From positions 33,985 through 97,984 of the forward strand of contig CALXPQ010000004.1 of assembly GCA_944390485.1 (NCBI GenBank): DNA of 64,000 bases. Reading direction: 5' to 3'. Source of the stretch: Veillonellales bacterium. GTDB taxonomy: Bacteria > Bacillota > Negativicutes > Veillonellales > Dialisteraceae. The position numbers and the translations under genes were made by a program. This document shows positions 1,045-46,193 of this stretch, piece by piece (position 1 is the stretch's first letter; each line of letters opens with the position of its first letter). Under the pieces are notes generated by a model. It was not told where the DNA came from and ran no database searches. It saw only the letters and a list, made by a program, of their open reading frames with translations.

Positions 1045-2349
1045 TTATTTTGCAAGCGACGGGATGACGCTGCCGCCGTGAGGAAGGATATTCACCGTGG
1101 GCGCGCCGATGCCGGCCGCGGCGCACTGCGCTCTGGCCATGGCCCAGGCGTCCTCCACGGTCTCCGCGGGGATCTGGCCGGTCTTCCGCACGAGGTCGAA
1201 ATTCTCTTTCCGCGTCACCATGTAGATGGTGTATTTGTGGGCGAGGCAGAAAAGATTGAACGCCGCGAAGAAGGGGATGGTGAACTGCTCCCGGAGAGCG
1301 CGCTCCATGTCGGCTTCGCTCTCGAAGCGGAAGCTCTCCATGAAAGCCGGCGGGTCCATGATCTCCGGGGACTCCACGATGGCGATGATGATGCCGCCGG
1401 GCTTCGTGGTCTCCGCCGCGGCGTCGTAGAATTTGCAGCCCTGATAGAGATTCACGTCTTTCGGGTAGCCGCCGGCGCAGCCGAAGGTCACGTCCGCCCG
1501 CGCGGGGTAGGTCACTTTCTGGATGCGCGCCACTTCGCGCACGCCGTCCATCCACGCTTCGTGCGGGTCGCCGCCCACCAGACGGCAGATCTGCCCTTCG
1601 TCATTTACCACGGAATGGACGAGGAAGCACGGACGGACCATGTCGCACGCCTCCTGCATGTCGTCGCTCACGGGGTTGCCGTCCAGCACGGCCGCGCGGG
1701 TGGCGGGATTCACGCCGCCGCCGAAGTGGTCCGCCAGGGCGTGGCAGTGGTTCTTCTGGATGGAGTCCCACCCGGCCACGCCGGGGAGGATCATCTTCCG
1801 GCCGGCGCTGTAGCCCGCGAAGAGGTGCGTGGTGATGCCGTCCACGAGGATGACCTTGTCCGCCTCCACCACGCGGCGGTTCAGCTCCACCGGGGTGCCG
1901 CGGGAGGTGGTGCCCACGAGGACGAGGTTCGCCCTGTCCCGGCTGTCGTGCTGGTAGAGCCGGATGCGGCGCGCCACTTCCTCGCCGACGACGCGCACGT
2001 CTTCTTCCGGTGTGTGCTTGCGGTGGGTGCCCTGGGCGAAGAGGATGGAAATGTCTCCGTCCGGCACGCCGCCCCGGTTCAGCTCATTCACGATGTGGAT
2101 GACGAACTGGTCGGAATGGTTCCACGCGCGGGTGATGTCCGCGCAGACGATGCACACCTTGTCGCCGGGCGCGACCAGCTCTGCGAGAGGCGCGGTGCCG
2201 GCAGGATGGCGGAGGCAGCGGAGCGCCGCTTCTTCCACGTCCACGGCGGGCGCGGGGTTGCCCTCGATGATGGAAAGGATCTGTTCTTCCGGGATGGCCA
2301 CGGTCTGCGTGCCCATGCCGTAGCCGAATGTGATTGTTTTCTGTGCCAT
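1045..2349 (-). CDS. larA: LarA-family nickel-pincer-cofactor 2-hydroxyacid racemase/epimerase, copy 1
   Basis: DUF2088/LarA motifs are present: FAQGTHR, ITTHLFAGYSAGRKMILPGVAG, NHCHALAD. I placed the start at MAQKT (2349) because GGGAGG lies 5 nt upstream; the track start at 2361 lacks an RBS. Confidence 0.8.
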   Translation of the reverse strand: MAQKTITFGYGMGTQTVAIPEEQILSIIEGNPAPAVDVEEAALRCLRHPAGTAPLAELVAPGDKVCIVCADITRAWNHSDQFVIHIVNELNRGGVPDGDISILFAQGTHRKHTPEEDVRVVGEEVARRIRLYQHDSRDRANLVLVGTTSRGTPVELNRRVVEADKVILVDGITTHLFAGYSAGRKMILPGVAGWDSIQKNHCHALADHFGGGVNPATRAAVLDGNPVSDDMQEACDMVRPCFLVHSVVNDEGQICRLVGGDPHEAWMDGVREVARIQKVTYPARADVTFGCAGGYPKDVNLYQGCKFYDAAAETTKPGGIIIAIVESPEIMDPPAFMESFRFESEADMERALREQFTIPFFAAFNLFCLAHKYTIYMVTRKENFDLVRKTGQIPAETVEDAWAMARAQCAAAGIGAPTVNILPHGGSVIPSLAK

Positions 2350-2437
2350 GATGCCTCCCATGGGAAATCTCTGAAAATCGTCCCCATTATAGCAGAAAAA
2401 GGCCCTGATGCCAGAGCCTCTTTGCCGGATTTTCTGT

Positions 2438-3748
2438 TTATTTGTCTTCCGCGAGCGTCGGGACGATGGACGCGCAGTGGGGCATGATGTTGATGGTGTA
2501 GTCGGTCTTTCCTTCGGCGGCGAGCTGCTTCTGCGCGAGCTCCCACGCTTCTTCCACGGTCGCCACGGGGATCTGGCCGGTCTTCTTCGTCATTTCCAGA
2601 TTTTCCTTTTTCGTGACGAGGTAGATGGTGTACTTGTGGCTCATGCAGAAGAGATTGAACGCCACGAAGAAGGGAATGGTGAAGTTTTCCCGGAGGGCGC
2701 GCTCCATGTCTTCTTCCGTGTCGTACTGGAAGCTGCCCATGTATTCCGCCGGTTCGAGGATGTCCCGCGCTTCCATGATGGCGATGATGATGCCGCCGGG
2801 CTTCGTGGCCGCGTCCGCCGGGTCGTAGCACTTGCAGCCCTGGTAGAGGGAGACGTCCTTCGGATAGCCGCCGGCGCAGGCGAAGCTCACGTCCGCTTTC
2901 TGCTTGAAGGGCACTTTCTGGATGCGGTACACTTCCTTCGTCCCTTCGAGCCACGCTTCGTAGGGGTCGCCGCCCACCATGCGGCAGATCTGGCCGTCCG
3001 CATTCACCACGGAATGGACGAGGAAGCACGGCGCGAGCATGTCGCACGCTTCCTGCATGTCGTCGCTCACGGGGTTGTTCTCCAGCACGGTGGAGCGGGT
3101 CGCCGGATTGATGCCGCCGCCGAACTGGTCCGCGAGCGCGTGGCAGTGGTTGATCTGGATGGTGTCCCAGCCGGCCACGCCGGGGAGGATGAGCTTGCGG
3201 CCGCCGCCGTACCCTGCGAAGAGGTGCGTGGTGATGCCGTTCACGAGGATGATCTTGTCCGCCGCGGCGACGCGCTTGTCGATCCACACGGGAGTGCCGA
3301 GCTTCGTGGTGCCCACGAGGGTGAGGCCGTCCTTATTGCGGCTGTCGTGCTGGTAGAGCCGGATGCGGCGCGCCACTTCTTCGCCGACGACGCGCACGTC
3401 TTCTTCCGGGGTCTGGGCGCGGTGCGTGCCCTGCGCGAAGACGATGTACATATCCTCGTCGGGGATGCCCGCCCGGTTCAGCTCGTTCACGATGTGGATG
3501 ACGAACTGGTCGGAATGGTTCCACGTGCGGGTGACGTCCGCGCAGACGATGCACACTTTGTCGCCGGGTTTTACGACTTCCGCGAGAGGAGCCGAGCCGA
3601 TGGGATGGCGCATGCAGTCGAGCGCCGCCGCTTCCACGTCCACGGCGGGCGTCGCGTTGCCTTCGATCACGTCGGAGATGTGCTCTTCCGGGAGCATGAC
3701 CGACTGATACCCTGTACCAAAACCAAATTTGAATTCTTTCAATGCCAT
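2438..3748 (-). CDS. larA: LarA-family nickel-pincer-cofactor 2-hydroxyacid racemase/epimerase, copy 2 (tandem paralog)
   Basis: It carries the same motifs (FAQGTHR, ITTHLFAGYGGGRKLILPGVAG, NHCHALAD) and is collinear with copy 1 over its full length. AAGGAGG lies 8 nt upstream of the ATG. Confidence 0.8.
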   Translation of the reverse strand: MALKEFKFGFGTGYQSVMLPEEHISDVIEGNATPAVDVEAAALDCMRHPIGSAPLAEVVKPGDKVCIVCADVTRTWNHSDQFVIHIVNELNRAGIPDEDMYIVFAQGTHRAQTPEEDVRVVGEEVARRIRLYQHDSRNKDGLTLVGTTKLGTPVWIDKRVAAADKIILVNGITTHLFAGYGGGRKLILPGVAGWDTIQINHCHALADQFGGGINPATRSTVLENNPVSDDMQEACDMLAPCFLVHSVVNADGQICRMVGGDPYEAWLEGTKEVYRIQKVPFKQKADVSFACAGGYPKDVSLYQGCKCYDPADAATKPGGIIIAIMEARDILEPAEYMGSFQYDTEEDMERALRENFTIPFFVAFNLFCMSHKYTIYLVTKKENLEMTKKTGQIPVATVEEAWELAQKQLAAEGKTDYTINIMPHCASIVPTLAEDK

Positions 3749-7552: not shown

Positions 7553-7630
7553 TGGTGACCCCAGAGGGATTCGAACCCCCGACACCTTGATTCGTAGTCA
7601 AGTGCTCTATCCAGACTGAGCTATGGAGCC
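7553..7630 (-). tRNA. tRNA-Arg (anticodon ACG), CCA encoded
   Basis: The reverse complement GGCTCCATAGCTCAGTCTGGATAGAGCACTTGACTACGAATCAAGGTGTCGGGGGTTCGAATCCCTCTGGGGTCACCA folds as a cloverleaf. The anticodon loop is CTACGAA. Confidence 0.9.
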
Positions 7631-7634
7631 ATAT

Positions 7635-7710
7635 TGGCAGGGGCAGAGGGACTCAAACCCCCAACCTACAGTTTTGGAGACTGTTGCTCTATCAATTGCG
7701 CTATGCCCCT
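7635..7710 (-). tRNA. tRNA-Trp (anticodon CCA), CCA encoded
   Basis: The reverse complement is AGGGGCATAGCGCAATTGATAGAGCAACAGTCTCCAAAACTGTAGGTTGGGGGTTTGAGTCCCTCTGCCCCTGCCA. The acceptor stem is AGGGGCA/TGCCCCT, the anticodon loop CTCCAAA and the discriminator G. Confidence 0.9.
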
Positions 7711-34508: not shown

Positions 34509-34985
34509 ATGGCCATATCCGGAGCGAAAGACGTGATGCTCCGCATCACGAGCCTGCAGGAAGATGAACAGGGCGAGACGGAGCGCATCGTGCTGGAGAC
34601 GCCGGGGCATTTCGGCGTGCGCCGGACGGTGCCGTTCCTCACGTATGAGGAGACGGAGCTCACGGGCATGAAGGGGACGCGGACGACGCTCTTCCTTCAT
34701 CCGGAGTCGGTCAGCCTCGTGCGGACGGGAACCTTCATGATGAAGCAGGAGTACCGCCCGGGCGAGGAGACCTACGCGGTGTGCGAGACGCCGGCGGGCC
34801 TGCTGGAGCTCGCGGTGCGGACGGAGTCCATCGAGAATACGGTCGGCGCGGCCGGCGGGAGCCTGCGCATCGTCTATGATGTGGAGCTCCGCGGACTCTT
34901 CCGGCACAGGAATGAAATATTGGTAGACGTATGGGAGGAAAAGGGGATCCATGGAAGTCAGAGAGGAACTGAAGCAGATCATTGA
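34509..34985 (+). CDS. DUF1934 (YwiB-like) protein
   Basis: It is a small beta-rich protein directly upstream of argS, as ywiB is in Bacillus. It overlaps the argS start by 35 nt. Confidence 0.6.
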   Translation: MAISGAKDVMLRITSLQEDEQGETERIVLETPGHFGVRRTVPFLTYEETELTGMKGTRTTLFLHPESVSLVRTGTFMMKQEYRPGEETYAVCETPAGLLELAVRTESIENTVGAAGGSLRIVYDVELRGLFRHRNEILVDVWEEKGIHGSQRGTEADH

Positions 34986-36615
34986 GGCGGCGAAGGAAGC
35001 GGCCGTAGCGGCCGGGGACCTGCCCGCCGGGGACTACGCTCCGGTGCAGCGCCTGGAGGTGCCGCCGCAGAAGGAATTCGGCGATTACTCCTCGAACGCG
35101 GCCATGCAGTGGGCGCGGACGGCGCGCCGCGCGCCGCGGATGATCGCGGAGGCGCTGGTGAAGCACATGGCTTCCCCGCTGGTGGACCGCGTGGAGATCG
35201 CCGGCGCGGGCTTCCTCAATTTCTACCTCACGACGGACACGGTATACACGGAGCTGCGGCGCATCCTCGAAGAGGGCGCGGCCTACGGGGACCTGCCCCG
35301 CCGGGAGGACGACACGGTGCTCGTGGAATACGTGTCGGCGAATCCCACAGGGCCCCTTCACATCGGCCATGCGCGCGGCGCGGCCTACGGGGACGCCATG
35401 GTGCGCCTCTACCGGGCGGCGGGCTACAACGTGGCCTCGGAATATTACATCAATGACGCGGGCAGTCAGATCCTCCATCTGGCGGAATCGGTGAACGCCC
35501 GCTACCTCCAGCTCCTCGGCGAAGACGCGGAGGTGCCGGAGAACGGCTATCACGGGCAGGACATCGTGGAGACTGCCCGGGCCATCCTCGAGCGGGACGG
35601 GCGGAAATACCTGGACATGTCCGAAGAAGACCGCCTCGCTGCGTTCAAGACGATCGCCCTCGAGGAGAAGCTCGCCGCGCTGAAGCGGGACCTCGAGCGC
35701 TTCCACGTGACCTTCGACCGCTGGTTCAGCGAGAAGTCGCTCTACCCGGACAAGGTGGACGGCGTGCTGCAGACGCTGAAAGACGAAGGCGAGCTCTACG
35801 AGCAGGGCGGCGCGTGGTGGCTCCGCACGACGGACAACGGCGACGACAAGGACCGCGTGGTCATCCGCGCGAACGGCGAGCCCACCTATTTCTGCTCGGA
35901 TATCGCCTATGCGAAAGATAAATTCGACCGGGGATTCAAAAAGCTGGTGGACATCTGGGGCGCGGACCATCACGGCTACATCGTGCGCCTGAAGACGGCC
36001 ATCAAGTTCCTCGGCTACGATCCGGACGCTTTCGACGTGGACCTGCTCCAGATGGTGACGCTCCTCCGGAACGGCAAGCCCGTCCGCATGTCCAAGCGCA
36101 CCGGGGAAGCGGTGACGCTGGCCGAGCTCATCGACGAAGTCGGCACGGACGCGGCGCGGTATTTCTTCACGAGCCGCACGCTGGACAGCCAGATGGAATT
36201 CGACATCGACCTGGCGAAGAAAGAATCCAGCGAGAACCCGGTCTACTATATCCAGTATGCGAACGCCCGCATCCACAGCCTCCTCGCGCAGGCGAAGGAA
36301 GCGGGATGCGTCTTCCGCGGCGCGGAGCAGACGGACTTCACGCGCCTCACGGCGGAGTCCGAACTGGACCTCATCAAGAAGATGGATACCTATCATGATC
36401 TCATCGCCAATGCCGCCAGGGAGCGGGCGCCGCACCGCATCGCGCGCTACGCCTACGAGCTGGCCGGCCTGTTCCACCATTTCTACCGGGAATGCCGCTG
36501 CCTCTGCGACGATCCCGGCCTTACGCAGGCGCGGCTCGGGCTGATCCTGGCCGTGCAGTCCATACTCGTTCACGCAATGACCATTTTGGGTGTCTCTGCA
36601 CCGGAGCATATGTAA
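34951..36615 (+). CDS. argS: arginine--tRNA ligase
   Basis: It has the class I HIGH motif (SANPTGPLHIGHARG), the KMSKR-type motif (RMSKRTGE) and a DALR anticodon-binding C-terminus. Confidence 0.95.
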   Translation: MEVREELKQIIEAAKEAAVAAGDLPAGDYAPVQRLEVPPQKEFGDYSSNAAMQWARTARRAPRMIAEALVKHMASPLVDRVEIAGAGFLNFYLTTDTVYTELRRILEEGAAYGDLPRREDDTVLVEYVSANPTGPLHIGHARGAAYGDAMVRLYRAAGYNVASEYYINDAGSQILHLAESVNARYLQLLGEDAEVPENGYHGQDIVETARAILERDGRKYLDMSEEDRLAAFKTIALEEKLAALKRDLERFHVTFDRWFSEKSLYPDKVDGVLQTLKDEGELYEQGGAWWLRTTDNGDDKDRVVIRANGEPTYFCSDIAYAKDKFDRGFKKLVDIWGADHHGYIVRLKTAIKFLGYDPDAFDVDLLQMVTLLRNGKPVRMSKRTGEAVTLAELIDEVGTDAARYFFTSRTLDSQMEFDIDLAKKESSENPVYYIQYANARIHSLLAQAKEAGCVFRGAEQTDFTRLTAESELDLIKKMDTYHDLIANAARERAPHRIARYAYELAGLFHHFYRECRCLCDDPGLTQARLGLILAVQSILVHAMTILGVSAPEHM

Positions 36616-41686: not shown

Positions 41687-41851
41687 GGGCAGCTCCTTTC
41701 CGGAAACAGAGGGAATACCGATTTGTCTGCATTGTAGCGGATGGATCGCCGGCGAATCAATCTGGATTTCCGACAGGGCCTATAAGGAAAACTGATGGGA
41801 AGACGCGGCGCGGATTTCGCATGAATGGATGAGAAAAGTGCAAAAATCGTA

Positions 41852-41881
41852 TTGACAGCGCCGGGGGGATGTTGTTATACT
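41852..41881 (+). promoter_or_regulatory. sigma-70 promoter of the T-box leader
   Basis: TTGACA (41852-41857), an 18-nt spacer, then TATACT (41876-41881). Confidence 0.55.
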
Positions 41882-41887
41882 GAATGC

Positions 41888-42125
41888 ATATTTCAAATCG
41901 ACATCCCCTCATGATGATGAACGGGAGCCATGCAAAGGCGCATTGCAGAGAGTCGCTGGGCGGTGGAAAGCGGCAGAGTCAAATTTGCATGTCCTCGCCC
42001 GGGAGTCCTTTTCTGAACGGAGTAGGAAGAGCGCAGGCCTGCGTTACGGGCTTTGAGTACAATGCAGGGTGGTACCGCGTAACTACGCCCCTGCCGGAAG
42101 TGAAAACCGGCAGGGGCGTTTTGTT
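41888..42125 (+). promoter_or_regulatory. T-box riboswitch leader (tRNA-sensing transcription attenuator)
   Basis: The elements are:
- AG bulge AGAGAG (41947-41952)
- distal loop GGTGGAA (41962-41968)
- Stem III (42031-42044)
- T-box sequence AGGGTGGTACCGCG (42066-42079)
- competing 13-bp terminator ACGCCCCTGCCGG/CCGGCAGGGGCGT plus a T-run (42085-42125). Confidence 0.85.
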
Positions 42126-42184
42126 ATAGAAAAAATTGGACCGCATGGGCGAGCCCGTGCCATACATCCAGAATGGAGGCAATC

Positions 42185-43048
42185 ATGGAAGCTGGAGAAA
42201 AACTGAGAGAGCGACTATCGAAGGACGAGATCCTCGTCCTTCCGGGCATTTATGACGCGCTGACGGCAAAGATCGCCGTGGCGCAGGGATTCGACGGACT
42301 GGTCATGGGGGGCTACGCGGTCTCCGCGTCCCGGCTGGGACAGCCGGACGTGGGCTATCTCTCCATGACGGAGATGCGGGACGCGCTCCGCACCATCACC
42401 CGCGCGGTGGACGTGCCGGTGGTGGCCGACGGCGACACGGGCTACGGCAACGCCATGTGCGCCCGCCGGACGTTCCGCGAATTTGAATGGGCCGGCGCGG
42501 CGGCGGTGCTCCTCGAAGACCAGGTGTGGCCGAAGCGCTGCGGGCACATGGCCGGCAAGCAGGTGGTGGACGCGGAGCTCCACGCGAAGAAGCTGCGCGC
42601 CGTGGCGGACGACAAACTGCACGACTCGACGATCCTCATCGCCCGCACGGACAGCCGGGCGGTGTACGGCATCGACGCCGCCATCGAGCGGGGCAAGCTC
42701 TACCTCGACAGCGGGGCGGATGCGCTCTTCATCGAAGCGCCGCAGAGCGTGGAGGAGCTGGAGAAGATCGGGAAGAGCTTCCCCGACACGATCCTCGTGG
42801 CGAATATGATCGAGGGCGGCCGCACGCCGAACCTCACCGCGAAGGATCTGGAGGAGATGGGCTTCGACATCGTCTTCTGGCCGTGCACCGCGGTGTACGC
42901 CATCACGAAAGCGTTCTCCGACGTGATGCACGCGCTGCGCACGGACGGCAATACGCGCAATGTGGAAGACAAGATGATGCATTTCAGCGATTTCAATCAT
43001 TTCATCGGCCTCGACACCTACAACGAGCTGGATGAGAAATATAAGTAA
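42185..43048 (+). CDS. isocitrate lyase/PEP mutase superfamily C-C lyase (methylisocitrate/dimethylmalate-lyase-like)
   Basis: The motifs are DGDTGYGN and LEDQVWPKRCGHMAGKQVV (the K-R-C-G-H catalytic loop). The start is at the second ATG (42185), 5 nt after GGAGG. Confidence 0.75.
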   Translation: MEAGEKLRERLSKDEILVLPGIYDALTAKIAVAQGFDGLVMGGYAVSASRLGQPDVGYLSMTEMRDALRTITRAVDVPVVADGDTGYGNAMCARRTFREFEWAGAAAVLLEDQVWPKRCGHMAGKQVVDAELHAKKLRAVADDKLHDSTILIARTDSRAVYGIDAAIERGKLYLDSGADALFIEAPQSVEELEKIGKSFPDTILVANMIEGGRTPNLTAKDLEEMGFDIVFWPCTAVYAITKAFSDVMHALRTDGNTRNVEDKMMHFSDFNHFIGLDTYNELDEKYK

Positions 43049-43082
43049 GTGAGACCGGGGCAGGGCCCCGGAGAAGGAAAGG

Positions 43083-44123
43083 ATGATCCCCATGAAGATG
43101 ATGAAAAAGATGACGGTAGCCGCGCTGGCAGCGGCAGTGGTGCTGGCGATGGCGGGCTGCGGCGGCAGCGGCGACAAGGCTCCGGCGAAATCCGCCGGCG
43201 GCGATCAGGCGGTGACGCTGAAACTGGCGGCGGCGCTCCCCACGAGCCATCCGCTGGTGCAGGCAATGGAACAGCTGAAAACGAAAGCGGCGGAGAAATC
43301 CGGCGGCACCATCACCATCAATATCTATCCTGCAGGACAGCTCTTCAACGACAAGAACATGAACGACGCCCTCATCTCCGGCGGCATCGACATGGGGCTG
43401 AATACGGTGGGCCGCTGGGCTTCGATCGTCCCGGCGATGGACGTCTTCGACGTGCCTTTCCTCTTCCCGAGCTATGAAAAGGTCGATCAGGCCATCGACA
43501 GCGGCCTCGGCGAAAAGCTCGGCGCGGAGCTGGAAAAGAAAGGCGTGCGTCCGCTCATCTGGGCCGACTACGGATTCGTCCAGTTCGCCAATAACGGCAA
43601 GCTCATCACGAAGCCGGAAGATTTCCAGGGCATGAAGATCCGCGGCTACAGCAAGTTCTCCTCCGAGACCATCAATGCCCTCGGCGCGTCCTCTGTCACC
43701 ATGGGGTCCAGCGAAGTGTACATGGGCATCCAGCGCGGCACCATCGACGGTCAGACCTCCGGCACCACGGCCATGCGCGACCGCAAGATGTACGAAGTGC
43801 TGAAATACATGACCGTCACGAACCACGCGTCCCCGGAATTCATCGTCGCCATGAGCCAGAAGTCCTACGACAAGCTCTCCGATAACCAGAAGAAAGCGCT
43901 GGACGAAGCGTGCAAGGAAGTGCAGCAGTCCATCCGCGACAACGCGAAGGCCGAAGACCTGAAAGCGCTGGACGATCTGAAGGCGAAGGGCATGGAAGTC
44001 TACGTCGTGCCGGAGAGCGAACTCCCGGCCTGGCAGGCGGCCACCCGTCCCGTGTGGGATCAGTTCATCGCAGAGACCGGCGACCTGGGCAAGGAACTGG
44101 TCGATATCTGCACGAAGCAGTGA
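43083..44123 (+). CDS. dctP: TRAP transporter substrate-binding protein (DctP family), lipoprotein-type signal
   Basis: It has the signal and lipobox ...VVLAMAGCGGSG. DctP-family features include FDVPFLF and the KIRG region. It is followed by the small and large TRAP permease genes. Confidence 0.8.
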   Translation: MIPMKMMKKMTVAALAAAVVLAMAGCGGSGDKAPAKSAGGDQAVTLKLAAALPTSHPLVQAMEQLKTKAAEKSGGTITINIYPAGQLFNDKNMNDALISGGIDMGLNTVGRWASIVPAMDVFDVPFLFPSYEKVDQAIDSGLGEKLGAELEKKGVRPLIWADYGFVQFANNGKLITKPEDFQGMKIRGYSKFSSETINALGASSVTMGSSEVYMGIQRGTIDGQTSGTTAMRDRKMYEVLKYMTVTNHASPEFIVAMSQKSYDKLSDNQKKALDEACKEVQQSIRDNAKAEDLKALDDLKAKGMEVYVVPESELPAWQAATRPVWDQFIAETGDLGKELVDICTKQ

Positions 44124-44153
44124 TTTCCTGATTGAAACAGAAAGTGTGATCCT

Positions 44154-44681
44154 TTGACATCCTTCATCCGTACTTACGACCGGGCCGTGGCGCTCGTGAC
44201 GAAGCTCGCCGGCGTCATCGCCGGGGCGCTCGTCCTGGCGGTGGGCTTCATGATCGTCTATGAGATCATCGCCCGCGGCGTCTTCAATTCTCCCACCGAG
44301 TGGGTGACGGAGCTCTCCACGTACGCCGTCATCATCGCAGGCTTCCTTGGCATGGGCGTCACCTACGCCGGAGGGAAGCACATCCAGGTGGACATCCTCA
44401 TCATGCACTTCTCTCCGAAGGTGCGCTGCTGGGTGGAGTTCGTCACGTGCATCCTCGCGCTCTACTACAGCTATGTCTTCGTCGTGGAAGGCTGGGCCAT
44501 GACCATGCTCTCCATCGCCTTTGACAACCGCGCGCCCACGACGCTTTCGACGCCCCTGTGGATCCCGCAGATTTCCATGCCCATCGGGCTGGCCATCCTC
44601 GCGCTCCAGATCTTCGGGACGATCCTTCACGATTTCCACAAGATGACCACCGGCCAGTATGAAGAAAAGGAGGAAAAATAA
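44154..44681 (+). CDS. dctQ: TRAP transporter small permease (DctQ family)
   Basis: It is a 4-TM protein of about 175 aa between the dctP and dctM homologs. The start is TTG at 44154. Confidence 0.75.
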   Translation: MTSFIRTYDRAVALVTKLAGVIAGALVLAVGFMIVYEIIARGVFNSPTEWVTELSTYAVIIAGFLGMGVTYAGGKHIQVDILIMHFSPKVRCWVEFVTCILALYYSYVFVVEGWAMTMLSIAFDNRAPTTLSTPLWIPQISMPIGLAILALQIFGTILHDFHKMTTGQYEEKEEK

Positions 44682-45959
44682 ATGCTCGCGTTATTTACCA
44701 TCCTCCTTCTGGTACTGCTCTTCTCGGGCCTCCCCGTGGCCTTCTCTCTCGGGCTCGGCGGCGTCGCCGGCATGGTGCTCTTCCTCGGCGGCGAAGGGGC
44801 GCTCGCGCAGCTCCCCATCATCGGGTACAAATCCCTCGACGATTTCGTCCTCGTCTCCATCCCGCTCTACATCCTCATGAGCCAGGTGCTCCTCACCGGC
44901 AAGGTGGGGAACGATCTCTTCGAGCTGGCGAATAAATGGCTCTGCCACCTGCCGGGTGGCCTCGGCGTGGCCACGGTCATCGCCTGCGCCATCTTCGCGG
45001 CCATCACCGGCTCGTCCGTGGCGTGCGCCGTCACCATCGGCTCCATCGCCATCCCGGAAATGCTCTCCCGCGGCTATGACCGCCGTCTCGTTCTCGGCAC
45101 CGTTGCCGCCGGCGGGACGCTGGGCATCCTCATCCCGCCGTCCATCCCGATGATCCTCTACGGGGCCATCACGGACGAATCGGTGGGCAAGCTCTTCATG
45201 TCCGGCGTCGTACCGGGTGTGCTCCTCATGTTCCTCTTCATCTGCGTGGTGGTCTACTCCTCGCGGAATCTGGAACGGCACGCCGCCGCGCCGTGGCATG
45301 AGCGCCTCTCCGCGCTGCGCCAGTCCATCTGGGGCCTGCTGCTCCCGATCATCGTCGTAGGCGGCATCTACACCGGCGCCTTCACCCCCACCGAAGCGGC
45401 GGGCGTGGGCACCGTGTACAGCCTCTTCATCACCTTCTTCGTGTACAAGACGCTGAAACCGAAAGATCTGCCCGGCATCCTGAACGACACCGTCCAGACG
45501 AGCTGCATGATCTTTGCCATCATGATCGGCGCGAGCCTCTTCGGCTTCGTCCTCACCATCCTCGACGCGCCGCAGGCTCTCACGAACTGGGTGGCCGGCC
45601 TCGAGCTCGGCAAATGGGCGGTCTTCGTGGCCATCAATATCCTGCTCCTCTTCCTGGGGTGCATCCTCGAGTCCATTTCCATCATCTTCATCACCCTGCC
45701 GATCCTCTTCCCGCTCATCATGCGGCTGGGCTTCGATCCGATTTGGTTCAACGTGGTGATGCTCCTCAATCTGGAGCTCGCCCTCATCACGCCGCCCGTC
45801 GGCATGAACCTCTTCGTCCTGCAGGGCGTCAGCCCGGACAGCAAGATGACCGACATCATCCGCGGCGTCGTTCCCTTCGGCTGCATGATGGCCCTCGAGA
45901 TCCTCATCCTCTGCTTCTTCCCGGAAATCGCCACCTGGCTTCCGAGCGTATTGAAATAA
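44682..45959 (+). CDS. dctM: TRAP transporter large permease (DctM family)
   Basis: It is a 425-aa polytopic permease whose start abuts the dctQ stop. It shows typical DctM repeats. Confidence 0.85.
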   Translation: MLALFTILLLVLLFSGLPVAFSLGLGGVAGMVLFLGGEGALAQLPIIGYKSLDDFVLVSIPLYILMSQVLLTGKVGNDLFELANKWLCHLPGGLGVATVIACAIFAAITGSSVACAVTIGSIAIPEMLSRGYDRRLVLGTVAAGGTLGILIPPSIPMILYGAITDESVGKLFMSGVVPGVLLMFLFICVVVYSSRNLERHAAAPWHERLSALRQSIWGLLLPIIVVGGIYTGAFTPTEAAGVGTVYSLFITFFVYKTLKPKDLPGILNDTVQTSCMIFAIMIGASLFGFVLTILDAPQALTNWVAGLELGKWAVFVAINILLLFLGCILESISIIFITLPILFPLIMRLGFDPIWFNVVMLLNLELALITPPVGMNLFVLQGVSPDSKMTDIIRGVVPFGCMMALEILILCFFPEIATWLPSVLK

Positions 45960-45967
45960 TGTTTCCG

Positions 45968-45996
45968 AAAAGGCCCGGCCTGTGCCGGGCTTTTTG
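45968..45996 (+). terminator. intrinsic terminator ending the T-box/TRAP operon
   Basis: Stem GCCCGGC (45973-45979) pairs with GCCGGGC (45984-45990), followed by TTTTT. Confidence 0.75.
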
Positions 45997-46193
45997 TGTG
46001 GAGAAATGGAAACGTTTTTTCTGCATACGGTGAGGGCCCGCATGGTGAAGGTGCCGTTTCCTCTCAGGGGGGGGAGCGGCCCCGCATCGCGGCGTAGGAA
46101 GTTGCTTCTCATCATTCTGCGACCCGCAACATCTATCCGTACGTGTCCGAAATATACGACAATTTCCATTTTGGGAGTACGAGCGCCGTGGCC

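Follow-up and report, generated by a model that had tools for sequence, protein, structure and literature searches.

The locus described here is a four-gene operon on the plus strand of a 64-kb stretch of one Veillonellales genome (Dialisteraceae; contig CALXPQ010000004.1, positions 33,985 to 97,984; hereafter the window), in which a T-box leader RNA (41908–42125) precedes genes for a carbon–carbon lyase and for the three subunits of a tripartite ATP-independent periplasmic (TRAP) transporter. Loci and leaders from relatives that were used for comparison carry L-numbers. A sigma-70-type promoter lies at 41852–41881, where the −35 element TTGACA (41852–41857) is separated from the −10 element TATACT (41876–41881) by an 18-nucleotide (nt) spacer with an extended TG. 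It matched 11 of 12 consensus positions and was the top promoter-like site between 41500 and 46300 in a consensus scan, and a TATA(A/C)T promoter-like element occupies the same relative position in three related loci (L001, L013, and L016). The lyase gene (42185–43048, 287 amino acids) has the ribosome-binding site GGAGG at 42175–42179, five bases upstream, and is followed by dctP (43083–44123, 346 amino acids), dctQ (44154–44681, 175 amino acids), and dctM (44682–45959, 425 amino acids), with intergenic gaps of 34, 30, and 0 nt. The operon closes with a terminator at 45973–45999, identified by terminator scan and in the sequence itself, which has a 7-bp GCCCGGC/GCCGGGC stem followed by UUUUUGUGU. 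Up to that point, no plus-strand terminator or promoter-like site was found to interrupt the operon, apart from a weak site within the lyase gene (42783–42810) with only 9 of 12 consensus matches.

The leader comprises Stems I, II, and III, followed by an antiterminator/terminator switch. Stem I (41914–42006 in the Rfam alignment) carries a GA/K-turn motif (UGAUGAUGAA, 41912–41921), a specifier loop, the AG bulge AGAGAG (41947–41952), and a distal loop (41958–41968) with GGUGGAA at 41962–41968. Stem II (42008–42031) and Stem III (42032–42043) were placed by the same alignment and contain four and two pairs with compensatory changes, respectively. The antiterminator (42066–42092) includes the T-box sequence AGGGUGGUACCGCG at 42066–42079 and is built from the pairing of AGGG (42066–42069) with CCCU (42089–42092) and of GCGU (42077–42080) with ACGC (42085–42088). 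It has a 7-nt UGGUACC bulge, the UGGU of which would pair with a tRNA 3′ end (NCCA with A73), and folds at −13.1 kcal/mol. The intrinsic terminator (42085–42125) consists of a 13-bp stem (42085–42119) followed by UUUUGUU and folds at −29.2 kcal/mol (z = −6.8). Because positions 42085–42092 belong both to the 5′ arm of the terminator and to the 3′ strand of the antiterminator, the two structures are mutually exclusive, and since the terminator is far more stable, termination is predicted to be the default state.

We assessed covariation in an alignment of 14 orthologous leaders, with pairing partners slid by 1 to 3 columns as a control. The canonical T-box fold had 86% of cells paired, compared to 38–54% in the slid controls, and contained 25 compensatory pairs in the antiterminator form and 29 in the terminator form. 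The observed covariation score was reached by none of 500 shuffles. Among individual helices, the base of Stem I (41922–41925/41998–42001) was 100% paired with 3 covarying pairs, the distal helix of Stem I (41952–41957/41969–41974) was 96% paired with 6 covarying pairs, the antiterminator helices were 96–100% paired, and the terminator was 93% paired with 6 covarying pairs. A profile of these 14 leaders matched the window at 41909–42125 and found exactly one such leader in it, as in each of the loci.

With permissive filters over 41800–42200, the Rfam T-box model RF00230 matched the leader at full length (model positions 1–219 at 41908–42095, E = 1.3e-16), scoring 74.9 bits against a gathering score of 93. 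Because the score is below that threshold, a default Rfam scan of the window listed two tRNAs only and not the T-box. The shortfall is explained by a short, divergent Stem I and a noncanonical specifier loop rather than by a missing domain, and the gathering threshold is set for curation purposes rather than on biological grounds. The leader has the Stem I motifs with a codon–purine specifier, as well as a UGGN bulge in an antiterminator that competes with an intrinsic terminator. Judged by sequence and conserved pairing, it is a complete class I transcriptional T-box in every structural respect tested, although it misses the curated score threshold.

These results bear out most of what a first-pass annotation had described from the DNA letters alone. 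Its four-gene operon with an upstream promoter, a T-box leader, and a closing terminator has all of these elements in the sequence. Control through the leader would also fit the consensus scan, in which the interval separating the leader terminator from the start of the lyase gene (42125–42185) held no promoter-like site. The listed leader elements lie where that annotation placed them and were supported by motifs, by the full-length Rfam match, and by covariation in the 14 leaders, and structure prediction folded both alternative hairpins as claimed. The covariance-model check that had been suggested was favorable in its full-length match and E value and unfavorable with respect to the gathering score.

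RNAalifold additionally proposed a long-range pairing between specifier-adjacent UCGCCC (41995–42000) and GGGUGG within the T-box sequence (42067–42072; alignment columns 107–112/224–229). We set this pairing aside as uninformative, since its bases are invariant or nearly so and show no covariation either way.

The specifier codon is read as CUC, a leucine codon, at 41994–41996, followed by the purine G41997 and lying directly 5′ of the Stem I closing helix. This register, taken from the Rfam alignment, is fixed because the covarying closing helix (41922–41925/41998–42001) abuts the CUC–purine. CUC is the usual leucine specifier of T-boxes, and the UGGU bulge implies a tRNA with A73, which suits tRNA-Leu and also tRNA-Val. 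Across 100 full-length aligned leaders, the specifier column was CUC in 19 and GUC in 81, with UC invariant, although this count overstates the number of independent observations, since many metagenome loci probably come from different strains of the same few species. By this reading of the specifier column, leucine and valine control differ by a single base in an otherwise homologous leader. Single-base specifier changes are known to switch T-box specificity, and the specifier agreed with gene function in every experimentally verified case (PMC2494555, which also discusses the codon preference of T-box specifiers in general).

The first gene of the operon encodes a member of the isocitrate lyase/phosphoenolpyruvate (PEP) mutase superfamily that resembles petal death protein (PF13714, 151 bits). 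Its closest solved relative is carnation petal death protein (1zlp; 246 bits, with 273 alignable residues), compared to 146–169 bits for methylisocitrate lyase structures. When aligned to the Escherichia coli methylisocitrate lyase PrpB, the catalytic residues D58, D85, D87, E115, K121-R122-C123-G124-H125, R158, E188, and N210 are all present (D55, D82, D84, E111, K117-R118-C119-G120-H121, R154, E184, and N207 in the lyase). The protein has the domain, the Mg2+-binding acidic residues, and the Cys-containing K-(R/K)-C-G-H loop of the superfamily's lyases. We take PrpB T212, R241, and R270 to bind the distal carboxylate of succinate (the carboxymethyl group) and F186, L234, and P236 to form the pocket for the C2 substituent (methyl), as reportedly described in the structure papers of Grimm 2003 and Liu 2005. 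At the first three of these positions, the lyase has I/Y/F, identical to petal death protein. That enzyme is said to cleave (2R)-methyl-, ethyl-, and propyl-malates, with C2 substituents up to propyl, as well as oxaloacetate (Lu et al. 2005).

Assignment of the lyase as PrpB was rejected, with scores of 274 bits against a cut-off of 354 (TIGR02317) and 215 against 353 (NF008455), and with T212/R241/R270 absent. More broadly, every NCBIfam equivalog cut-off for methylisocitrate lyase, isocitrate lyase, PEP mutase, and carboxyphosphonoenolpyruvate mutase was missed, and the residues for the succinate carboxylate are lacking. On the strength of its conserved residues, the protein is a true Cys-dependent carbon–carbon lyase predicted to act on a substituted malate rather than a methylisocitrate or isocitrate lyase.

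The remaining three genes together encode the components of a TRAP transporter, and each matched its family models above the cut-off. DctP is a solute-binding lipoprotein (PF03480, 266 bits; TIGR00787, 202 bits, cut-off 175) with the lipobox LAMAGC, a lipoprotein signal. DctQ is the small membrane subunit (PF04290, 94 bits), and DctM is the large one (PF06808, 361 bits; TIGR00786, 405 bits against a cut-off of 268). The lyase with its KRCGH loop at 42185–43048 and the dctP, dctQ, and dctM homologs at 43083–45959 had both been named in the first pass, and these matches uphold them.

Among solved binding proteins, DctP was most similar to 4P47 (175 bits), with no more than 127 bits to any other. 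Its scores against solved C4-dicarboxylate DctP proteins (9dsy, 9dtl, and 9ht3) were 113–116 bits, no better than those against uronate or pantoate binders. The Arg that anchors the ligand carboxylate is kept, with K-I-R aligned to R173 of 4P47, and R152, Y196, and N213 of 4P47 are replaced by V, S, and S, resulting in a four-position signature of V/R/S/S (ligand-contact positions and the role of the Arg from PMC11668362). Relatives of 4P47 bind pantoate or erythronate (PMC11668362). Known TRAP systems also take up 2-oxo acids destined for amino-acid biosynthesis, and 2-acetolactate and pantoate are among the established ligands of TRAP binding proteins (PMC5812351). A homologue search with the window's own binding protein returned close relatives from the same clade only and no informative distant context.

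To place the operon among its relatives, we scanned for the lyase in one genome per species, which returned 80 loci, the closest of them from Negativicutes. Of the 22 Negativicutes-type loci, 16 have the T-box core AGGGTGGTACCGCG ahead of their lyase orthologue. The block lyase-dctP-dctQ-dctM is kept in L001–L012, in Phascolarctobacterium metagenome contigs, and in Sporomusa ovata, and we read 17 leaders of the form T-box(CUC)-lyase-dctPQM (the window, L001–L005, L007–L012, L083–L085, and L091–L092). One Phascolarctobacterium binding protein is recorded on 212 contigs. In two Negativicutes metagenome-assembled genomes (MAGs; L011 and L012, one of which bears the label Sporomusaceae), the run leuA-leuC-leuD-leuB-lyase-dctPQM stands behind a single CUC T-box, with the leuB stop overlapping the lyase start. 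The leuA, leuC, leuD, and leuB products of these two loci pass NCBIfam equivalog cut-offs at 750, 682, 246, and 488 bits. No further ilv or leu genes were found within reach in the flanks of the Phascolarctobacterium, L011, and L012 operons.

Two of these neighborhoods contain other T-box-like elements. About 3 kb from the S. ovata operon (L091 15649–15858, minus strand), a T-box with a GCC (Ala) specifier scored 116 bits, above gathering, and lies ahead of two genes, one with an AsnC-type regulator domain (PF01037) and the other for a class I/II aminotransferase. In Phascolarctobacterium (L083 12248–12482; also L084 and L085), a weak T-box-like match ~5 kb downstream of the operon lies upstream of trpB-trpA and is probably a Trp T-box.

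A second arrangement was found in Dialister (L013, L014, and L016–L018), where the lyase (55–57% identical) stands alone behind a homologous T-box with the specifier GUC (Val). In L016, the Rfam model independently puts GUC-A at the specifier position. The transporter has a counterpart of its own in L086, a contig reached through an oversized DctP match, where a T-box (83.8 bits, GUC-G) lies directly before dctPQM and no lyase gene is present in the 13.3-kb locus. A metagenome scan with the L086 binding protein returned 80 human-gut loci, 76 of them with a full-length T-box adjoining dctP on its upstream side and no intervening lyase gene; the arrangement T-box(GUC)-dctPQM, likewise without a lyase between T-box and dctP, was counted at 75 gut loci. 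Two TRAP-only loci (L120 and L122) carry CUC, though their binding proteins are 78% identical to the GUC group. Both parts meet again on a single contig (L145), which contains T-box(GUC)-lyase, with an enzyme 80% identical to that of Dialister, and T-box(GUC)-dctP ~5 kb downstream. Because the lyase and the transporter share leucine or valine T-box control whether fused or split, we read them as one functional module that is fused in some lineages, split in others, and controlled by tRNA-Leu or tRNA-Val.

Some Dialister-type loci have structural peculiarities of their own. Just past the first terminator of its lyase leader, Dialister has a second, partial T-box discriminator (AGAGUGGUACCGCG) with its own terminator and without a Stem I (L016 5619–5689; also L013 3123–3195 and L014 4637–4712), which may be a tandem T-box remnant or an additional point of control over termination. 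Between dctP and dctQ, Dialister-type TRAP operons have a spacer of ~350 to 1100 nt (L125 7990–9090; also L119, L121, L128, and L156) that consists of tandem copies of a ~200-nt non-coding repeat (...GCCGCCGAAGGCGGCTGCTTCCCGCCGACCGG...CCGCGTACCAAGATTCTTC...CAGAATGAC...), resembling a repetitive extragenic palindrome or a miniature inverted-repeat transposable element inside the operon. The DctP open reading frame of L086 (P0124, 8046–9680) is 559 amino acids long and contains two overlapping DctP-like segments (query positions 25–346, then 84–345). We rejected a lyase fusion in favor of an internal partial duplication or a strain-collapse assembly artifact; its counterpart in 22 near-identical loci (L093–L114) is of normal length.

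The two lyase clades, which we call Leu-type and Val-type after their specifiers, have ten fixed differences, half of them at active-site strand ends. At PrpB positions 26, 187, 188, 189, and 236, the Leu-type has Y, I, E, A, and P, and the Val-type has G, A, D, G, and A; the F residues at positions 186 and 234 are common to both. In the C2 pocket (PrpB 186/234/236), the Leu-type therefore has F/F/P, compared to F/A/S in petal death protein and F/I/P in dimethylmalate lyase. This suggests a Leu-type pocket at least as tight as that of methylisocitrate or dimethylmalate lyase, with a small C2 substituent and with glyoxylate or pyruvate, rather than 2-oxoisocaproate or 2-oxoisovalerate, as the likely product. 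The Val-type pocket appears roomier, such that a larger C2 substituent would fit. The V/R/S/S signature is identical in Leu-type and Val-type binding proteins, which suggests that both bind the same or a very similar carboxylate, probably a more hydrophobic one.

More distant lyase homologues were also considered as a clue to the substrate, but their contexts (L019–L022, L035, L038, L049, L063, L073, and L080) were heterogeneous and did not identify it, varying among LeuCD-like hydratases, sodium:solute symporter family or major facilitator superfamily transporters, a PrpR-type activator, and an upstream tRNA gene. Homologues that are 45–48% identical lie beside LeuC/LeuD-like hydratases in Abyssobacteria, a Firmicutes MAG, Nitrospirales, and Poribacteria (L035 3823–6867, L038 1508–6870, L063 12–6083, and L073 4157–6858), and in L038 they are accompanied by a second lyase paralogue and the gene for a sodium:solute symporter. 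These four loci look like other substituted-malate pathways. Gut Sutterellaceae (Mesosutterella and Duodenibacillus) encode a lyase 56–59% identical to the Dialister enzyme (L087 6948–8897; L089/L090 7114–8891), which adjoins a gene for a MetQ/NlpA-family binding lipoprotein (PF03180) and no TRAP genes; a PF03180 gene is also present on L086.

In the regulatory model that follows from the leader, transcription would start at the 41852–41881 promoter and stop by default at the leader terminator (42085–42125). The anticodon of uncharged tRNA-Leu would pair with the CUC specifier (41994–41996), the tRNA elbow would dock on distal Stem I, and the free tRNA 3′ end would pair with the UGGU bulge and stabilize the weaker antiterminator. 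RNA polymerase would then read through into lyase-dctP-dctQ-dctM. This model of the leader and operon is well supported, with the response to tRNA itself predicted from the leader's features.

We propose that the operon is a lyase and TRAP module under leucine T-box control that supplies carbon skeletons for branched-chain amino acids, and we assign this reading a probability of roughly 0.65, for which we infer the transporter ligand, the lyase substrate, and the reaction direction. The transporter would import a carboxylate useful for both valine and leucine, either an isopropylmalate-type dicarboxylate or a 2-oxo- or 2-hydroxy-isovalerate-type acid. The lyase would make or break the C2–C3 bond of a substituted malate, joining the 2-oxoisovalerate/isopropylmalate node upstream of LeuCD and LeuB. 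Because control alternates between leucine and valine, and because the module is appended to leuABCD, which consumes 2-oxoisovalerate, supply would occur at or just before the valine–leucine branch point, and the module probably acts near the 2-oxoisovalerate/isopropylmalate node.

The first-pass annotation had already suggested that an uncharged tRNA, whose amino acid it left unnamed, switches on the acquisition of an organic-acid precursor, with an alkylmalate cleaved to the limiting 2-oxoacid as its example. The amino acid can now be named from the CUC specifier as leucine, and the general idea is strongly reinforced by that specifier, by the leuABCD fusion in L011 and L012, and by the valine version in Dialister. 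The comparison of T-box-linked lyase and TRAP operons that it called for showed the unit itself to be conserved. The alkylmalate scheme fared less well, being a poor fit for the Leu-type F/F/P pocket, though it could apply to the roomier Val-type.

Specific chemistries for the module are more tentative than its proposed role. In the version that we favor, though at well under even odds, isopropylmalate is the imported compound. The roomier Val-type lyase would split 2-isopropylmalate into 2-oxoisovalerate and acetate, while in Leu-type organisms, imported isopropylmalate would go through LeuCD and LeuB beside a lyase for malates with a small C2 group. The Leu-type lyase, acting on a malate with hydrogen at C2, would possibly form (2R,3S)-3-isopropylmalate from glyoxylate and isovalerate; (2R,3S) is the stereochemistry used by the whole lyase family. 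A bolder version, which we consider unlikely, is a new branched-chain route in common gut anaerobes, based on coenzyme A (CoA)-independent carbon–carbon chemistry, by which imported or scavenged acids would join at the isopropylmalate/2-oxoisovalerate node. Here, the Leu-type enzyme would join glyoxylate and isovalerate into 3-isopropylmalate for LeuB, the Val-type would convert 2-isopropylmalate to 2-oxoisovalerate and acetate, and the C-to-G specifier change would retarget the module. Alternatively, the transporter may import 2-oxoisovalerate or related acids, with the lyase serving as a CoA-independent enzyme that forms or cleaves isopropylmalate.

Several observations weigh against a role in branched-chain supply or against parts of its proposed chemistry. 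Six of the 22 Negativicutes-type loci (L006, L015, and L019–L022) lack a detectable T-box. L015 is uninformative because its 5′ end is cut off, but L006 has a lyase-TRAP operon in which no T-box was detected, L019, L020, and L022 have the lyase alone with a tRNA gene upstream, and in L021, the lyase is immediately preceded by a dctM homologue. In the rumen-type loci (L019, L020, and L022), neither the leader profile nor the Rfam scan found a T-box for the Val-type lyase, and the leader profile found none for the Val-type lyase of the proteobacterial Sutterellaceae. Where leaders are present, those of the window and its orthologues (65 and 83.8 bits; related leaders 65–84) score under the RF00230 threshold of 93, and the specifier loop lacks the canonical GAA/AGUA S-turn sequences. 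The closest solved binding protein, 4P47, is an apo structure, and the pocket reasoning combines sequence alignment with residue roles from the methylisocitrate lyase literature rather than drawing on a liganded structure. As for the chemistry, the small C2 pocket predicted for the Leu-type would make plain cleavage of 2-isopropylmalate to 2-oxoisovalerate unattractive, imported 2-isopropylmalate needs no lyase to become leucine, and condensation of glyoxylate with isovalerate needs a glyoxylate source, none of which is evident.

A more general supply of pyruvate would account for some of the same data. An imported C4 or C5 dicarboxylate (citramalate, D-malate, oxaloacetate, or dimethylmalate) would be split into pyruvate or glyoxylate plus acetate or propionate and feed acetolactate synthase. 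Pyruvate is scarce in asaccharolytic, succinate-using Negativicutes, valine and leucine are both derived from it, and the F/F/P pocket with Y26 resembles that of the pyruvate-releasing dimethylmalate lyase. Petal death protein also reportedly cleaves citramalate-type substrates and oxaloacetate (Lu et al. 2005). Some homologues are named “oxaloacetate decarboxylase” by NCBI, but no model behind that name passes its cut-off. However, T-box regulons are normally specific to one amino acid, and gating of central pyruvate by tRNA-Leu or tRNA-Val would be unexpected. Moreover, in L011 and L012, the module follows leuABCD and not ilvBNCD, and a binding site more hydrophobic than in relatives (V for R152) suggests a branched or hydrophobic ligand. 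We consider this role quite unlikely.

The 76 gut loci with a T-box directly before dctPQM, no lyase between them, and valine or leucine specifiers could instead be taken as ordinary amino-acid transporter T-boxes, given that this layout is usual for T-box-controlled amino-acid permeases (PMC2494555). In that case, DctP would bind leucine or valine for import, and the lyase would be a passenger with a separate role. A ligand-site signature unusual within the family (by 4P47 numbering, R152V, Y196S, and N213S) would be in line with such a ligand, yet the carboxylate-anchoring Arg is kept, and characterized DctP-type proteins bind organic acids (PMC5812351). The lyase is itself T-box-controlled in every T-box-bearing clade, either in the same operon or by its own valine T-box as on the L145 contig, which calls for an explanation within organic-acid metabolism, and the pair is appended to the biosynthetic leuABCD in L011 and L012. 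Direct amino-acid import is therefore, in our estimate, very unlikely.

Metabolite repair would leave the transporter independent. Under leucine starvation, a promiscuous, derepressed LeuA would make wrong 2-alkylmalates (citramalate, 2-ethylmalate, and 2-propylmalate), which the lyase would remove, preventing norvaline and norleucine formation. The position of the lyase directly after leuB in L011 and L012 fits this idea, as do the (2R)-methyl-, ethyl-, and propyl-malates that the closest characterized enzyme is said to cleave (Lu et al. 2005). Still, repair explains neither the strict association of lyase and TRAP importer across 17 operons, nor the separate valine T-box control of both parts in Dialister-type genomes, nor the small Leu-type C2 pocket, and we hold it to be highly improbable. 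That the leader is a decayed, non-functional remnant in front of a constitutive or otherwise regulated operon is scarcely credible: its sub-threshold Rfam score, degenerate specifier-loop S-turn, and the T-box-less L006 operon would agree with decay, but the model matches at full length, the T-box core and specifier UC are invariant in 100 leaders, every helix shows compensatory changes, the leader has kept a very strong terminator, and no internal promoter-like site was found.

A few other features of the operon and its surroundings deserve mention. Between the lyase stop and the dctP ribosome-binding site, there is a G+C-rich 7-bp hairpin without a U-run (CCGGGGC-AGG-GCCCCGG, 43055–43071, plus strand). 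We rejected it as a plus-strand terminator, given the lack of a U-run and a scan that lists a minus-strand site only; it may influence how stable the mRNA is or how strongly the lyase is expressed compared to the transporter. The window as a whole is housekeeping chromosome with 64.7% G+C, in which GC3-based gene calling identified argS, pyrG, purA, purB, mnmE, and pfk, among others, and no branched-chain amino-acid genes elsewhere in the 64 kb. The argS gene (34951–36615) has no T-box by Rfam gathering scan or leader profile. Two tandem LarA-like genes of the lactate racemase family (PF09861 and PF21113) lie at 1045–3748 and adjacent genes for tRNA-Arg(ACG) and tRNA-Trp(CCA) at 7553–7710, all on the minus strand.

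In the searchable full-text literature, no paper was found that links a T-box to TRAP, DctP, or C4-dicarboxylate terms or to this lyase family, in agreement with the initial claim that the cargo is unusual. The 2008 T-box survey contains no lyase/TRAP case (PMC2494555), and a Geobacter genome paper with the terms T-box, leucine, and methylisocitrate lyase appears, from its term counts, to mention them separately. Few computational clues to function are as reliable as T-box specifiers, and those described here place two orphan families in the supply of leucine and valine: a clade-specific TRAP transporter and the bacterial relatives of petal death protein. Phascolarctobacterium and Dialister, to which this assignment applies, are common members of the human gut community and are not sugar users. 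Were the assignment confirmed, it would uncover a route of cross-feeding or salvage for branched-chain precursors that is absent from present metabolic reconstructions. Because the leaders score below the Rfam gathering threshold, automatic annotation will miss them as well. The same module, fused or split and with CUC or GUC, also illustrates how a regulon can shift between amino acids, and the conservation of this specifier-switching regulon among abundant gut genera opens the function of both orphan families to direct tests with a short list of ligands and reactions.

Compared to known systems, the leader shares its architecture, leucine codon choice, and uncharged-tRNA logic with the leucine T-boxes of Firmicutes, such as those of Bacillus subtilis ilv-leu, leuS, and the putative leucine permease gene yvbW. 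It differs from them in lying below the Rfam gathering cut-off, in having no GAA/AGUA in its specifier loop, and in its cargo, which is a lyase with DctPQM rather than a synthetase, a canonical biosynthetic enzyme, or a known permease. The transporter resembles TRAP systems for biosynthetic precursors, including the Rhodobacter capsulatus 2-oxo-acid system (Thomas et al. 2006) and the 2-acetolactate and pantoate binders, in its carboxylate-binding Arg (PMC5812351). However, those systems are not reported under T-box control, and the window's DctP is only modestly similar to solved members, with a distinctive V/R/S/S signature.

The lyase, for its part, shares the K-(R/K)-C-G-H loop, Mg2+ ligands, and I/Y/F signature with petal death protein (1zlp), a (2R)-alkylmalate lyase and oxaloacetate hydrolase. 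Unlike the plant enzyme, it is bacterial, linked in an operon to a transporter, and under a T-box, and its C2 pocket of F/F/P in place of F/A/S probably gives it a narrower substrate range. With PrpB and isocitrate lyase it has the superfamily fold and catalytic residues in common, whereas it falls short of the PrpB model (274 against 354 bits), lacks T212/R241/R270, and has no prpC or prpD neighbors. A parallel in gene content is the 2,3-dimethylmalate lyase of nicotinate fermentation with its LeuCD-like dimethylmaleate hydratase, in which the same lyase family stands beside LeuCD-type hydratases, as in L035, L038, L063, and L073, and the C2-pocket residues Y26, F186, and P236 are shared. Yet the score to the dimethylmalate lyase structure 3fa3 is only 174 bits, the C3-pocket residues differ, and that system is catabolic, whereas the operon described here is placed under amino-acid starvation control. 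The T-box mechanism is thus already known, and the new part is its cargo, an uncharacterized lyase-TRAP module.

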